Assembly: GCA_965208325.1 (NCBI GenBank)
Contig: OZ242326.1
Span: 1,024,001-1,088,000, forward strand
Reading direction: 5' to 3'
DNA from: Candidatus Poribacteria bacterium
GTDB taxonomy: Bacteria > Poribacteria > WGA-4E > PCPOR2b
DNA length: 64,000 nt
Positions 43,422 through 48,542 of the stretch are shown here, one piece after another (the stretch's first letter is position 1; every line of letters begins with the position of its first letter). The notes under the pieces are model-generated. The model saw only the letters and a list, made by a program, of their open reading frames with translations, did no database searches and was not told where the DNA came from. Both the position numbers and the translations under genes were made by a program.

Positions 43422-44168
43422 TCATCCATGGACTGCATCTGCGAATCTCTTCATTAACGAGAAGGAGTTTTGCTGTTCAATGACGTTTCCTGTCACAATA
43501 AAGTCCGCCCCGGCGTTTACCTTTGCAACAGCCAACTCCGGCGTCGTGATTCCTCCGCCCACTATGATAGGAATAGTAACGTGTTTGCGAACGGCGCCGA
43601 TTAATTCCTCCGGAACGGGTATTCTTGCGCCGCTGCCCGCCTCAAGATAGATGAACTTCATACCGAGATACTCCGCAGCAAGCGCGTGCGCCCACGCAAT
43701 GTCCAATTTATCACGCGGAAGCGGGGCAGTCCCGCTCATAACTTCAACCGACGTAGCAGTACCACCGTCAATAAGCATATACCCTGTGGATATCGCCTCT
43801 ATACCGCAACGGTGAATTAATGGCGCCGCTTTGACCTGCTCGCCGATTAGAAAATTGGCATTCCGGCCGCTGATTAGGCTTAGGTATAATATGGCATCGG
43901 CATGCTGGGATAGGTGCATAGAGTCCCCGGGGAACACAATGACCGGTAAAGACGTCTCGTCCTTCAAGGCTTTTGCAAACGGGTTGAGGTCATTTGTCAA
44001 GAGGCTGCTCCCCAGCAACAGTGCATCAACTCCTGCTTCTTCCGCTTGATGCGCAACATGCATGCAATCGGCGATGGAATGCCGATCGGGGTCTAAGAGC
44101 ACAATGTAGCCTGCTCTGCATCTTGACAGAACATTCAGTAGGTAATCTAAGGTTGAACCTGATTTCAT
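43422..44168 (-). CDS. Geranylgeranylglyceryl phosphate synthase (GGGPS/PcrB family, group II-like)
   Basis: LLDPD, LGSS, FPG, LSLISGRN, GYMLIDGG, YLEAGSGA, VGGGI, VTGN. Confidence 0.92.
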   Translation of the reverse strand: MKSGSTLDYLLNVLSRCRAGYIVLLDPDRHSIADCMHVAHQAEEAGVDALLLGSSLLTNDLNPFAKALKDETSLPVIVFPGDSMHLSQHADAILYLSLISGRNANFLIGEQVKAAPLIHRCGIEAISTGYMLIDGGTATSVEVMSGTAPLPRDKLDIAWAHALAAEYLGMKFIYLEAGSGARIPVPEELIGAVRKHVTIPIIVGGGITTPELAVAKVNAGADFIVTGNVIEQQNSFSLMKRFADAVHG

Positions 44169-44246
44169 GGGGTTAGGTGTTTGGAGATTCGTTTTTTCAA
44201 ATCTGCTCTCGCCGCCATTGAATCTGATGGAATTAGACCGATTGCG

Positions 44247-45440
44247 TCAGAGCCATCCGGAGCGTATGAGATGTCTCAATTCCAGTAGCAAGCGTGGTTG
44301 GTGCATCAACACCGTCTTAAAAATCTGCATCATGTTGACCTTGTCAGGCGGCATCTTTGACACCACCTCCGCACACTTGTCAAAAAGGTCATCACTGAAC
44401 TTAAGCACACCATCTCGTATTCGGCAGACGTGCTTGAAATTACTGCCAATTTCCTTGTCCCACCGGTTTTGATAAGCGCTCAAAATCTTTGCGGACACAT
44501 CTCCAATTCGGATAGCATCGACCGCCGCGTCGGCGGCAAATTGTCCCGAATACATTGCGTTTGCGACCCCGCCGCCAGAAATAGGATCGCTATGGTGCGC
44601 CGCATCGCCAATCAGCATAATCCCGTCACCCACAATCTTGGGCAGACTATTCCCTACCGGCACACAACCGACGACCTGCGCAAGAATTTTTCCGTGCGGA
44701 AATTTTCGTTTGACGAATTCATTTAGATAGTCGATGGCGAGCTTCCCGCCCTTACCGGAGATTGTCCCGCCGATTCCGATGCCGACATTCGCAATGTCAT
44801 CTCCTTTAGGGAAAACCCAGGCATAGCCTCGCGGCGCAAGCTCGCGGCCAAGGTAAAAATCGCAGAAATCGGGGATAATGCCAATCTTAGAAATTAAGTA
44901 TTGGGCGCAAATGTCCACGTCACGTAAATCGTGTGTGCTATCTATGCCCGCCCACCGCGCCACCTGCGATTCAATTCCGTCGGCAGCGATGACGACCTTC
45001 GCCTTACATGAGTAGTCACGTCCGAAATAACGGAATACCACCCCGTTGACGAAACCGCCATCTGACTTGGAAACGGTCGTCGCCCGTGCTTTAACGATAA
45101 TTTCGGCACCCGCATCCGCCGCCATTTCCGCCAAGACTCGATCGAAAACCTTGCGTTCTAAAACATAACCGGCGCCCGGAAAATGGATTGTGGCGGCGGT
45201 TTCGTTGGGAGAAAAGATTCGAGCGCCGTTAATTTCGCGCGAAACCCACGCCGGATCGGGCTGAATAAACTCGCACAGCGACGCTGTACCAATCCCCTCC
45301 GCTCAACGCACCGGCGCGCCAATTTCCTGACGTTTTTCCAACAACAAGACACGCAAGCTATTTTCTGCGGCAACCTTAGCGGCAATTGCACCCCCAGGGC
45401 CGGCACCGACAACAATGACATCATAGTCCGAGTGAACCAT
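44247..45440 (-). CDS. Digeranylgeranylglycerophospholipid/geranylgeranyl reductase, 397 aa, with in-frame TGA at codon 46 (candidate selenocysteine)
   Basis: Manual translation: [17 protein letters not shown]...[17 protein letters not shown]...LERKVFD, continuing in frame into the track ORF 44247-45134 (ADG, GYAWVFP, GDAA..DPISGGG). Confidence 0.88.
45268..45294 (-). promoter_or_regulatory. Candidate bacterial SECIS hairpin
   Basis: mRNA after UGA reads GCGGAGGG-GAUU-G-GUACAGC-GUC-GCUGUGC-G-AGUU; the G-initiated apical loop begins 20 nt after UGA. Confidence 0.6.
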
Positions 45441-45658
45441 CAAAAAAGTCCCCGTCCTTCGTACGCTGGGTAATACACCTTACCGTTTCGTTCTAATGCA
45501 AGCACGCCTACCGGGCAACCTTTGATGCATCGCGCACAGTCGGTGCACTTGGGCTGGTCTATTTTCAGATAGATATCAACGAGATCAATGATGTTCTCAG
45601 GACAGACGGCAACACAAGCCCCACAATAACTACAAAGTTCTTCGTCTATAAGAATCAT
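45440..45658 (-). CDS. 2x[4Fe-4S] ferredoxin
   Basis: [12 protein letters not shown] and [12 protein letters not shown]; its stop overlaps the reductase start (TGATG). Confidence 0.92.
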
Positions 45659-45769
45659 CGCATGCCTTTCCCGCTTGAGAACGTAATTTCTACAGTGCGA
45701 GTTTCCTAATATTTGGATTCATTTAACGGTTAATGGTCAACTATTTTTCTTATGATTTTGGTATCGAAG

Positions 45770-46591
45770 TTAATTTACCGATTGAAACTGCCGCCGTCGG
45801 ACGTGTTCAAACAGTATTATTCCAGCGGCGACCGCAACGTTCAACGAGGATTGGCCAGGCGCCATAGGAATCTTGACAAGGTTGGTGCAAAGTTGGAGAA
45901 TTTCTTCCCTGATTCCTTCGTTTTCATTTCCCACCACAATCGCCAAGGGGGTACTAAGTTCCAAATCATACAGGCTCGTGTTCGCCTTGGCGGTGGCACC
46001 GAGAATCTCAAATTCAGCCGAAATCAACTGAGGAAAATAATCTTCCGGTGACTCGCAAAATGCCAGTGAACTGCGCCCAACAGCTCCTCTAGCAGCCCGG
46101 ACACAGTTCTTATGGAAGGGGTTTGCGCCTTCTCCGATGAACACGACGGAATCAACTGCCGCCGCTTCAGCGGTGCGCAGCACCATGCCAAGGTTATCCG
46201 GATTGGTGACACTATCGGCGATTAACAGCGTACTCTCAGCCGGCAGGTGAAGATCTGCCGCGTTCTGGTAATTCATCCAAACCGATGCGATCACGGCTGG
46301 AACCGGTCTCGTGCTGGTAATGGTCCCCATTAGTCCGGCGCTAAGCATAAATGGGGCGAATTTTGCTGCGGCGGAATTATTCAGTAATGCAACCCCCCGC
46401 TCATTCGCCAACAGGTCGGGAGTATAAAGGATTTTGTCAACCGGTAACCTGTCATGAACAGCACGATCGACGAGCGTAACGCCTTCGACCACAAATCTGG
46501 ACGCCTTCATTCTCCCGTTTAGTGAGCTAAGTTTGCGAAATTCAGAGATGATAGGATGCTTTTTACTGTTTATAACCGCTCGGTTCGCCAC
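45770..46591 (-). CDS. TrmH/SpoU family RNA methyltransferase
   Basis: NPDNLG..LR, VVGNENEG, IPM...SSLNVAVA. Confidence 0.9.
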   Translation of the reverse strand: MANRAVINSKKHPIISEFRKLSSLNGRMKASRFVVEGVTLVDRAVHDRLPVDKILYTPDLLANERGVALLNNSAAAKFAPFMLSAGLMGTITSTRPVPAVIASVWMNYQNAADLHLPAESTLLIADSVTNPDNLGMVLRTAEAAAVDSVVFIGEGANPFHKNCVRAARGAVGRSSLAFCESPEDYFPQLISAEFEILGATAKANTSLYDLELSTPLAIVVGNENEGIREEILQLCTNLVKIPMAPGQSSLNVAVAAGIILFEHVRRRQFQSVN

Positions 46592-46597
46592 TTTTGC

Positions 46598-47446
46598 CTA
46601 TGGGGAGGATCCAAGGTAGATTGCCCCCAATCCAATGAAAATGTCCCACTTCATCCATTTTTGAATCTGTGCGCTGTTGGCTCTGGAATCATTCCGCCAA
46701 AGCCGATAGCCTAGATATATTAATACCAAATCCACACCTACGATAACGGTTAAAAGATAATGCCACGAATACCAATTCAGAAAATATGGAATCGGACTGA
46801 ACAATATAACCGCGGCGATAAAGATGAGTGCAATCAGCACGGCAACCCGTTTTCCCCAAACTACAGGAATTGTACGCGCATCGTGCCGGACATCACCCTC
46901 CGTGTCCTCAATGTCTTTAATTATCTCTCTTGCGGTGGTAAACAGTAGCGCAAATACCGCCGGAACGAACGTACCGGAAACAGTCCGCACCGAGGTTCCT
47001 CCTACAATGAAAGTTAAGCCTGTCAGTACCCCAACTAGGAGATTACCGAATAACGGTGTTTGTTTCAAGCAGAACGCGTACAAGACAAGACAACCGGACA
47101 CGGTGACGGTAATTGCCGCAGTATGCAGGTTAACTGTAAACCCAAACAAGATTCCCAGTCCCATCAATGTTATAGAAAACACCATAGCGCCTTGTCGGGA
47201 AATCCTTGCGGACGGAATCGGACGATCGGGTTTGTTAATCCGATCTATCTCGTAGTCACAATAGTCGTTGAGCGCATTGCCCGCCGATAGGAGCAGAAAC
47301 GCCGAACTCGCTGCCAACAACACATTGATATTAGTTACGACGACCCATTCCCCCAACCCGACTGCAAACATCGCTCCGAGATAGACAGAGAAAAAAGCGA
47401 TCAATCCGTTTATTGGACGTGAAAGTTGAAGATAAGCTGTAATCAT
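46598..47446 (-). CDS. Digeranylgeranylglyceryl phosphate synthase-like UbiA prenyltransferase
   Basis: RPIN, AGNALNDYCDYEIDRINKPDRPIPS, AREIIKDIEDTEGD...T.P, matching DGGGPS-type motifs. Confidence 0.85.
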   Translation of the reverse strand: MITAYLQLSRPINGLIAFFSVYLGAMFAVGLGEWVVVTNINVLLAASSAFLLLSAGNALNDYCDYEIDRINKPDRPIPSARISRQGAMVFSITLMGLGILFGFTVNLHTAAITVTVSGCLVLYAFCLKQTPLFGNLLVGVLTGLTFIVGGTSVRTVSGTFVPAVFALLFTTAREIIKDIEDTEGDVRHDARTIPVVWGKRVAVLIALIFIAAVILFSPIPYFLNWYSWHYLLTVIVGVDLVLIYLGYRLWRNDSRANSAQIQKWMKWDIFIGLGAIYLGSSP

Positions 47447-47474: not shown

Positions 47475-48542
47475 TTACGCTTCGCGGCCCGGATATGTGA
47501 TGCCGAATCTAACGGAATAATACCAGCGAACGAAAATTAGGCTTCCAGCGAGCAAAATTATGTAAAATGGGGCTAAAACACAAGCGATAAGTGAAAGAAT
47601 GAGTATACCTGCCCGTGCCGCGAAGATAATAACCCTTCGTTCTCTCCTGAAGTTCATATAAATGAAAGGCGGTAAACAGAGTAATGCGGTAAATAATGGT
47701 ATCATATCTTTGACCCACCATGCGGCCAAAATTGCGCCCACCAATAGCACCAAGCTCAACAAGCAGGATAGCTTGGCGCCTAATATTACGCCGGTCGTAC
47801 GATCTCCGAACTCACTGTCGCCGTTCAAATCCGGGAGCGTCGTGTTGACAAAGGCTGCCCCCACACACAAGGCATAAGGGATTATCCGCCGCAAGGCTTC
47901 GCCGTTCATCGGCGCTGCTAACCCCCAGCCGATTAAAAATGCGATGCCGCCATAGCCGGCGGCGTTGGCTAGAAGGTCGAGGAAGGGTCTCCCTTTTAAT
48001 CGAACTGGACGAATGGAATAAACGACGCCAAGTAAGATTGAAAGCCCAATTAGGACGAGATAGCTCAGGTTGTTTCTAAACCAGAAACCTGCCCAAACCA
48101 CGGCAGAAACAAGTAACATGCCGGCTTCCAACACAAGCAGCCGAATTTTCACATGTCCCTGCGCAACGAGAAAGAGTTTGTTGTTTGCTGCGTCTGTTTC
48201 TTTGTCACAGATTTGGTTGATGATGTAAATTGCCCCCATCAGCATAGAGTACAAACAGAGGGTACCCAGCAACTCATGATTGGGACGAACCAAAATATTA
48301 AATTTCGGCAGAAATGCGAGCTGTACTGCCCTCAATCCTTCGTATGTAGAAGTGTCAGACAATGCGCCATAATAGCCAAGCAACACAAGGGTCCAAACCG
48401 GCAGCAGCAGTGTTGGACGAAGGACAATTATATAATCCAAAAGATGTATCGCGCTGCGTTTCGTGGGTTGCAGCTTAGTTTGAGTGAGTGAATTTCCCAT
48501 TCCAAATCCGACTGCGCCTGAGATGCCGCGTCCACAATACAT
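47475..48542 (-). CDS. Second, divergent UbiA-family prenyltransferase (start may be 48500)
   Basis: YIINQICDKETDAANNK, YSIRPVRLK.RP, NTTLPDLNGD; multiple TM segments. Confidence 0.8.
   Translation of the reverse strand: MYCGRGISGAVGFGMGNSLTQTKLQPTKRSAIHLLDYIIVLRPTLLLPVWTLVLLGYYGALSDTSTYEGLRAVQLAFLPKFNILVRPNHELLGTLCLYSMLMGAIYIINQICDKETDAANNKLFLVAQGHVKIRLLVLEAGMLLVSAVVWAGFWFRNNLSYLVLIGLSILLGVVYSIRPVRLKGRPFLDLLANAAGYGGIAFLIGWGLAAPMNGEALRRIIPYALCVGAAFVNTTLPDLNGDSEFGDRTTGVILGAKLSCLLSLVLLVGAILAAWWVKDMIPLFTALLCLPPFIYMNFRRERRVIIFAARAGILILSLIACVLAPFYIILLAGSLIFVRWYYSVRFGITYPGREA

Follow-up and report, generated by a model that had tools for sequence, protein, structure and literature searches.

A geranylgeranyl reductase of Candidatus Poribacteria with a conserved in-frame UGA predicted to encode selenocysteine at the position of the catalytic cysteine

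The best described relatives of the gene treated here are the geranylgeranyl reductases (GGRs) of archaea, represented by the DGGR of Thermoplasma acidophilum (3OZ2) and the GGR of Sulfolobus acidocaldarius (3ATQ/3ATR/4OPC). According to the accessible parts of the two papers from which the motif names GxGxxG, YxWxFP, LxGD(AA) and GGG are taken, a cysteine on the flavin side is conserved across all archaeal GGRs, and in the Sulfolobus enzyme this Cys lies directly behind the isoalloxazine ring and is essential to catalysis (PMC10821996, PMC6309074). The accessible text of the first paper also describes its role, electron transfer or flavin tuning, as only "speculated", and states that NADP(H) is the reported reductant of the Thermoplasma enzyme, that the reductant of the Sulfolobus enzyme is not known and that in Methanosarcina acetivorans a ferredoxin encoded next to the GGR is its specific in vivo reductant (PMC10821996). 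The present study concerns a GGR gene in a stretch of 64,000 nucleotides (nt) of genomic DNA (the window) from a Candidatus Poribacteria bacterium (assembly GCA_965208325.1, contig OZ242326.1, positions 1,024,001 to 1,088,000), in which the codon for this Cys is replaced by an in-frame UGA. The sequence data make it very probable that the gene encodes a full-length, ferredoxin-coupled GGR, dependent on flavin adenine dinucleotide (FAD), with selenocysteine (Sec) replacing the essential Cys behind the flavin. Such a protein would be a conserved Sec-coding variant of the archaeal-type GGR and would combine two known kinds, the GGR enzymes and the bacterial selenoproteins. The gene and the codon are located as follows.

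44247..45440, minus strand: geranylgeranyl reductase (GGR/DGGR family) gene, 397 codons plus a TGA stop, with predicted Sec at codon 46; assigned from TIGR02032, PF22578 and the alignment with 3OZ2
45303..45305, minus strand: in-frame UGA, codon 46, presumably read as Sec; aligns with the catalytic Cys of GGRs

Re-translation confirmed the layout of the frame given in an earlier reading made from the sequence alone (ATG at 45440, TGA at codon 46, 397 residues, YxWxFP and GDAA intact). The start codon, at 45440-45438, shares a base with the TGA that ends the ferredoxin gene before it (TGATG), and the single in-frame TGA, at 45305-45303, stands in the context GAPVR*AEG. Past codon 46 the frame continues with no other stop or frameshift through residue 397 and ends at a TGA at 44249-44247. 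Like the Thermoplasma and Sulfolobus enzymes, the protein belongs to a three-domain FAD family with the GxGxxG, YxWxFP, GDAA and GGG motifs, found here as GAGPGG of the Rossmann fold (residues 12-17), YAWVFP (206-211), LIGDAA (276-281, with GDAA at 278-281) and SGGG (288-291). In profile searches the read-through product scores above the cut-offs of TIGR02032 (230 bits, cut-off 158.8) and PF22578 GGR_cat (88.6 bits, cut-off 27) and below those of the archaeal DGGR equivalogs (NF041160, 295 versus 780 bits; NF041080, 171 versus 580; NF041385, 99.5 versus 700). By these scores it is related to the clade-specific archaeal DGGR models, yet no member of them. The closest solved structure is 3OZ2 (E 3e-77, residues 5-392 aligned), and the Sulfolobus GGR structures (3ATQ) match at E 6e-32.

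In the alignment, the TGA column is that of Cys45 of Thermoplasma DGGR (3OZ2, PVRCGEG) and of the Cys in the KPCGDA motif of Sulfolobus GGR, as expected from the conserved PxRC(G/A)EG Cys beside the FAD that the sequence-only reading had pointed to. The window gene has a UGA and no Cys codon in this column, and it possesses the catalytic residue of its family only if the UGA is read as Sec. The window protein thus resembles the Thermoplasma and Sulfolobus enzymes in placing the catalytic residue within a PVR-C/U-(A/G)EG motif and differs from them in the predicted Sec for Cys, the bacterial host and the dedicated ferredoxin gene upstream.

The distribution of TGA and Cys at this column across the phylum is sharply divided. 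A six-frame search of 176 Poribacteria genomes found GGR in 56, among them 42 of the 159 genomes of the window's order (G000 included). Within the order, 38 of the 42 hits are full length with one TGA; the gene of G124 is broken off at a contig end with the TGA kept, that of G089 is in two pieces with the TGA in the N-terminal one, and the fragment in G008 stops short of the codon-46 column. Outside the order, the codon was left unread in G066, whose hit has no internal stop, and the hit in G064 does not cover the column. Codon 46 was read in 53 loci, 41 from the window's order and 12 from other orders or classes. All 41 orthologues of the order have TGA, in the context [PVL]R*AE[GA], and they come from four families with 69-95% protein identity and synonymous sites near saturation, while a TGT or TGC stands there in each of the 12 from elsewhere in the phylum (49-67% identity). 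Sixteen species-representative Poribacteria loci, largely from the same genomes as the survey set, have TGA too. Beyond the phylum, Cys occupies the column in 64 of 64 homologues, which span Chloroflexota, Ignavibacteria, LCP-89, ANME-1, Methanosarcinales, Methanobacteriaceae, Methanomassiliicoccales, Micrarchaeota and others, making 76 of 76 with TGT or TGC outside the order. The Cys-type GGRs of other Poribacteria orders are sister sequences with the same motif; unlike the window gene, they lack the hairpin described below and many are fused to a ferredoxin. The alternation of TGA and Cys among orthologues, proposed as a check with the sequence-only reading, is therefore present and follows the boundary of the order.

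Both sides of the codon are under purifying selection. In comparisons of the window gene with 32 gapless orthologues, the ratio of non-synonymous to synonymous differences (pN/pS) lies between 0.07 and 0.20 before the TGA (codons 1-45) and between 0.08 and 0.22 after it (codons 47-397), at pS values of 0.20 to 0.95, implying that both halves are translated in frame and maintained. Constraint on both segments is incompatible with a pseudogene or with a product that starts past the TGA. Contigs from three other sponge-metagenome studies that cover window positions 44200-45700 carry 10, 21 and 23 substitutions and no insertions or deletions, and none of these substitutions falls inside the TGA or 45273-45289, where the hairpin lies; the suspicion of an assembly error raised with the original reading is answered by this retention of the TGA in independent studies. 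A contig from a fourth run is identical over this span and may be the source of the same DNA. Were the TGA due to a nonsense mutation or to faulty sequencing or assembly, the GGR gene would be a pseudogene; gene callers treat it as one, the 57 closest database proteins are N-terminally truncated, and two orthologues (in G033 and G135) do have additional stops or a frameshift. Set against this are the TGA in 41 of 41 orthologues from four families at near-saturated synonymous divergence, the selection on either side of the codon, the contigs of the three other studies and the covarying hairpin behind the TGA. Error or decay at this codon has a negligible probability and is effectively refuted by conservation.

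The database models themselves raise a different possibility, namely that the UGA is a stop and that a shorter functional protein is made by downstream re-initiation, perhaps together with a 45-residue N-terminal peptide. Downstream starts do exist, such as the TTG at 45134, which would give 295 residues, and short models of this kind are in the databases. A set of 118 proteins matched the read-through product at E <= 1e-120. The 57 closest, comprising all 45 at >=68% identity and 12 at 66-68%, start past the codon-46 column, their alignments opening at query residues 54-116, and the remaining 61 cover the column and all have Cys there; a full-length model of the Sec clade was not found among the 118. 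The earlier forecast that automated annotation would truncate the gene is thus borne out in 57 of 57 close database proteins. The exact sequences of the 295-residue downstream open reading frame and of the read-through protein were not found in the protein collection; the TTG start of the former was given as Leu, which may explain the miss. The scatter of starts in these models argues against a conserved internal start. In addition, a short product would have neither the GxGxxG strand-helix of the FAD-binding Rossmann fold (residues 12-17) nor the catalytic residue, the constraint on codons 1-45 is as strong as that on the rest, and the hairpin and the homology to Cys would go unexplained. Re-initiation is accordingly considered very unlikely.

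A hairpin of the selenocysteine insertion sequence (SECIS) type follows the UGA.

45273..45289, minus strand: SECIS-type hairpin with a stem of 7 base pairs (bp) (45289-45283 with 45279-45273), a 3-nt loop at 45282-45280 and an invariant first loop G

The 5' arm is GUACAGC (45289-45283), the loop GUC (45282-45280) and the 3' arm GCUGUGC (45279-45273), and the loop starts 20 nt after the UGA, as the sequence-only reading had described it; 13 nt separate the UGA from the hairpin. That reading had also extended the stem by GAUU/AGUU; the extension is present in the window sequence, and among the orthologues only two of its four pairs are retained (columns 13-37 and 14-36). Folding of the first 45 nt from the UGA gives a minimum free energy (MFE) of -15.6 kcal/mol (z = -2.51), and 2 of 200 shuffled sequences fold as well. 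For comparison among orthologues, the 63 nt from the UGA were aligned for 41 Sec forms, 39 of them distinct, with columns 17-23 pairing with columns 27-33. Of the 272 cells, 97.4% are paired, and the proportion is 11-62% when the 3' partner columns are slid by one to three positions. Three of the seven pairs have changes on both sides (28 cells), and the covariation score of 0.361, compared with a shuffled mean of 0.202, was reached by none of 500 shuffles. The compensatory changes are non-synonymous: ACA..UGU/C (Thr..Cys) becomes GCA..CAC or GCA..CGC (Ala..His or Ala..Arg) in several separate families, and the closing pair switches among C-G, A-U and U-A. The loop G in column 24 is a third codon position whose codon varies among Ala, Glu, Val and Pro, and it is G in 48 of 48 distinct Sec forms. 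All seven pairs form in 39 of these 48 and six in the other 9. Among 76 distinct Cys forms, by comparison, 72 have at most four pairs, two have five and two have six, and G is found at column 24 in 33 of 76. That TGA and hairpin recur together in all 41 orthologues read from the order is far beyond chance.

The published model of bacterial SECIS elements, as quoted in a 2026 review, specifies an apical loop of 3-9 nt, an upper stem of 4-16 bp, a G at loop position 1 or 2, as a rule with G or U after it, a spacing of 16-37 nt between UGA and loop and an MFE <= -7.5 kcal/mol (PMC13188914). With a loop of 3 nt (GUC here; GGC or GGA elsewhere), a stem of 7 bp, a spacing of 20 nt and an MFE of -15.6 kcal/mol, the window hairpin lies within all of these limits; it also covaries and is specific to the TGA forms, and the proposed check against a SECIS model and for stem covariation thus came out in its favour. 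Like the bacterial consensus (bSECISearch model; E. coli fdh), it is a stem-loop directly 3' of the UGA within the coding sequence and has a small apical loop with G at position 1 or 2, then G or U. It differs in its short, uninterrupted 7-bp helix, its 3-nt loop and the absence of a bulged U like that of the E. coli fdhF element; binding of SelB to it is predicted.

The machinery for Sec insertion is encoded in the same genome, which is a single contig of 4.71 Mb and 95.6% complete. The selA (588.7 bits), selB (373.5 bits) and tRNA-Sec (77.5 bits) genes are consecutive near 2.04 Mb, the tRNA being called SeC with anticodon TCA by ARAGORN, and the fourth gene has an in-frame TGA of its own at the canonical site (...TVKCAG*ASKLD...).

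C1:4481278-4482201, minus strand: selD with in-frame TGA (locus L010), 376.8 bits, in the window's own genome

All four of selA, selB, selC and selD, whose search had been proposed as a check, are therefore present. In the phylum, selA was found in 163 of 176 genomes, and of the 14 genomes with a GGR that has Cys or misses the column, 9 have selA as well, implying that Sec use predates the Sec form of GGR. Two fragmented genomes with a TGA-containing GGR and no selA match (G009 and G089) have selB above the cut-off and a TGA-containing selD. The accessible text of a 2017 study of sponge microbiomes places SelA and SelB in most symbiont bins (PMC5649159), and that of a 2026 paper describes Sec variants of group 4 [NiFe] hydrogenases in nine phyla including KSB1 and Poribacteria (PMC13582414). 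TGA also serves as an ordinary terminator in the window, where it closes 20 of the 41 stop-to-stop frames of at least 250 codons, the GGR and ferredoxin genes among them.

Given a translated UGA, the inserted residue could be something other than Sec, either Cys carried on tRNA-Sec under selenium scarcity or Trp or Arg through near-cognate read-through. For some systems, Cys is reported to be inserted at Sec codons when selenium is limiting, and sequence data cannot tell which residue goes in. The complete Sec pathway with a SelD that is itself a selenoprotein, the match of the hairpin to a SelB-type SECIS model and Cys as the sole occupant of the column in homologues all speak against such a substitution, and a default reading as Cys gives no reason for keeping the UGA and SECIS so long. 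Another residue at codon 46 is thus unlikely. The insertion of Sec is inferred from machinery, hairpin and conservation taken together, and the original proposal that the UGA is read as Sec is supported on each of these counts as well as by the alternation of Sec and Cys and the constraint on both sides of the codon. In the proposed mechanism, the UGA at codon 46 would not be read as a stop during translation; the 7-bp hairpin 13 nt downstream, with G at its first loop position, would recruit SelB carrying Sec-tRNA(Sec), and the Sec so delivered would be inserted at codon 46.

Several observations weigh against the reading of the gene as a functional Sec-coding GGR. The shuffle test for covariation ignores the kinship of the sequences, so that 0 of 500 is not a probability. 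RNAalifold by itself recovers no more than a 5-bp core, its covariation term is small (-0.72 kcal/mol), and the 7-bp stem is taken from pair counts across orthologues and not from RNAalifold. The apical loop of the 7-bp form, at 3 nt, stands at the lower limit of the SECIS model. The other two pairs of the proposed extension are unpaired in 21 and 22 of the 39 distinct sequences and show no covariation, and a permissive Rfam scan of window positions 45150-45400 gave three matches at chance level (E 1.5-9.9), none of them relevant. The presence of GGR in only 42 of 159 genomes of the order implies that it is dispensable for many relatives. In G033 the gene is frameshifted (G033:C2:1265194-1266383), with an N-terminal piece containing two TGA and one TAG, and the copy in G135 (G135:C136:31529-32719), one of the 38 full-length hits, has an extra TAG in place of a conserved Trp codon; these two copies (loci L071 and L070, respectively) may be decaying or may reflect errors in metagenome-assembled genomes.

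The phylogeny of the family bears on the origin of the Sec form. A maximum-likelihood tree of 122 rows (quick search, LG+G4) groups all 38 Sec rows of Poribacteria in a single clade (SH-aLRT 99), whose sister and successive outgroups are in turn Cys-type sequences from within the phylum. The replacement of Cys by Sec arose once at the base of one Ca. Poribacteria order and has been kept since. The whole tree has two Cys/Sec changes (the column-46 codon of L147 is TGC and thus Cys), the second being that of a metagenome contig. A scan of metagenome contigs with a degenerate motif requiring TGA at the column gave 40 matches, of which 27 are Poribacteria-like GGRs (71-84% identity) and one is L192. 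The remaining 12 were rejected as chance matches without GGR homology, L186 and L193, the latter with only a weak N-terminal match, among them. L192 is a contig of 1675 nt with a coding sequence at 94-1284 for a GGR 44% identical to that of the window; its frame of 397 codons is intact, with TGA at codon 50 in the context PVR*AEA, and is followed by a hairpin (GCGCAA / CGGGU / UUGCGC) whose arms take up columns 17-22 and 28-33, as in the Poribacteria forms, and whose base in column 24 is G. In the public annotation the gene is called as a 337-residue fragment. The closest database relatives of L192, named KSB1, Calditrichaeota or "bacterium", reach at most 71% identity and are full-length Cys forms, and L192 is nested among them in the tree (SH-aLRT 98). 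This single contig of 1.7 kb probably represents a second, independent replacement of Cys by Sec, in a KSB1-like lineage. A database protein of 347 residues (P0086), 69% identical to the L192 Sec form, starts at the fourth residue after the column (three residues on) and may be a further Sec form.

The sequence-only reading had left open whether the family is already catalogued as a selenoprotein. Full-text literature searches, including DGGR, SECIS, archaeal-lipid and Poribacteria contexts and with supplementary survey tables outside their scope, did not find a Sec-containing GGR. A 2026 review of the prokaryotic selenoproteome tabulates 119 selenoprotein families and subfamilies, GGR not among them, and its main text contains none of the terms geranyl, isopren, lipid, flavin, Poribacteria, FixC, TIGR02032, PF22578, PF01494, PF12831 and PF01266; the accessible text of the deep-Sep paper has no GGR-like family. 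GGR is thus not listed as a selenoprotein in the searchable literature, and the Sec form appears to be unreported as far as that literature goes, although a mention in the supplementary tables of surveys of metagenome-assembled genomes is possible. Comparable systems are the catalogued FAD selenoenzymes of the CoA-disulfide-reductase and sulfide:quinone reductase types, which likewise have Sec for a redox Cys, a UGA with a downstream hairpin and widespread Cys homologues. They are of the pyridine-nucleotide-disulfide oxidoreductase type and act on sulfur substrates, whereas the window GGR is p-hydroxybenzoate-hydroxylase-like and, by homology, would act on isoprenoid C=C bonds.

The genes around the GGR gene, all on the same strand, point to a role in lipid synthesis.

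43422..44168, minus strand: archaeal-type GGGP synthase (PcrB/GGGPS), directly downstream of the GGR gene; TIGR01769 210.7 bits (cut-off 161.55) and NF003198 274.7 bits (cut-off 247)
45440..45658, minus strand: 2x[4Fe-4S] ferredoxin of 72 residues, the presumed electron donor; its stop overlaps the GGR start
45770..46591, minus strand: SpoU/RlmB-like RNA methyltransferase, between the DGGGPS-like UbiA and ferredoxin genes
46598..47446, minus strand: UbiA prenyltransferase, DGGGP synthase-like; just below the cut-offs of PRK12884 (245.7 bits, cut-off 269) and PRK12882 (231.7 bits, cut-off 296)
47475..48542, minus strand: second, divergent UbiA-family prenyltransferase of 355 residues; PF01040 64.5 bits

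This block is flanked by the bacterial genes lpxD, hrcA, grpE and dnaK. The SpoU/RlmB-like gene stands between UbiA and ferredoxin in the window's genus and in L077, and it is not found there in L079-L082, where the ferredoxin gene comes right after UbiA. Among 16 Poribacteria loci, GGGPS adjoins GGR in 8, the DGGGPS-like UbiA is likewise adjacent in 8, and the second UbiA stands next to the module in 6; a match to the second UbiA with 29% identity also stands beside the ferredoxin-GGR pair of an LCP-89 bacterium. The association with ferredoxin is widely kept, a ferredoxin gene lying directly upstream of GGR in 14 of the 16 Poribacteria loci and in 53 of 64 other bacterial or archaeal loci (67 of 80). 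Fusions of ferredoxin and GGR, of at least 440 residues and with Fer4 domains, account for 33 of the 118 close database relatives (P0191-P0239 among them). In Cys-type Poribacteria the ferredoxin is fused to the N-terminus of GGR, as in the open frames of 475-477 residues of G061 and G062, and in the Sec clade the two genes are separate with a 1-base overlap. As in M. acetivorans, a gene for a small 2x[4Fe-4S] ferredoxin lies beside that of the reductase; the archaeal enzyme (the gene pair is presumably MA1484/MA1485) has Cys, while the window gene has predicted Sec and a SECIS, and its dependence on ferredoxin is suggested by analogy.

Homology and gene context together lead to the proposed donor and substrate. 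The GGR would take electrons from the ferredoxin encoded just upstream and would saturate geranylgeranyl chains, most likely those of ether lipids made with the products of the adjacent GGGPS and DGGGPS-like genes. GGGPS (TIGR01769) is above the cut-off in 143 of the 176 Poribacteria genomes, compared with 56 of 176 for GGR, and matches in control genomes are confined to archaea. It is present in 54 of the 56 genomes with GGR, the two exceptions being 73% and 64% complete. Full-text literature searches for Poribacteria with GGGPS or geranylgeranylglyceryl gave only two broad evolutionary essays. That the substrate is a geranylgeranyl ether lipid is suggested by the co-occurrence of GGGPS and GGR, and the indirectness of the assignment counts against the proposed function; so do the search results for the window genome, in which CarS (PF01864) was not found and no convincing glycerol-1-phosphate (G1P) dehydrogenase was found. 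The best Fe-ADH_2 matches were rejected as candidates for the latter (80.5 versus 413 bits), since they resemble glycerol dehydrogenase and lactaldehyde-reductase-type alcohol dehydrogenase. Given these two negatives, no claim is made that the genome encodes the entire archaeal phospholipid pathway. The stretch occurs in sponge-metagenome runs, and no RNA run was found among the 24 listed runs that contain it.

Sec has a lower pKa and a higher nucleophilicity than Cys, and it may bring a catalytic gain in GGR. A wider proposal, which we favour only by a little, is that GGR is an uncatalogued selenoprotein family and the first selenoenzyme of membrane-lipid (isoprenoid) biosynthesis; that the replacement arose at least twice, in the sponge-associated Poribacteria order and in a KSB1-like lineage, with the SECIS built at the same codons; that the flavin-proximal Cys is a redox or proton-transfer residue limiting catalysis; and that ether-lipid saturation has become selenium-dependent. 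Within this proposal, the recurrence of the swap from Cys to Sec would imply that the flavin-proximal Cys is chemically active and that its reactivity limits catalysis. The Sec form of GGR would be a natural probe of the mechanism, in which the conserved Cys is essential and its role speculative.

It would also be a new selenoprotein family in a new metabolic area, isoprenoid and ether-lipid saturation, relative to the 119 catalogued. The annotation error is systematic, all Sec-clade members in the searched protein collection being without the FAD-binding N-terminus, and reconstructions of Poribacteria pathways from such truncated models would under-call lipid saturation. The GGR forms part of a bacterial gene set for archaeal-type lipids, with GGGPS in most genomes of the phylum, and so bears on the debate about the lipid divide. 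If the wider proposal is true, the saturation of archaeal-type ether lipids in these bacteria would hinge on selenium supply.

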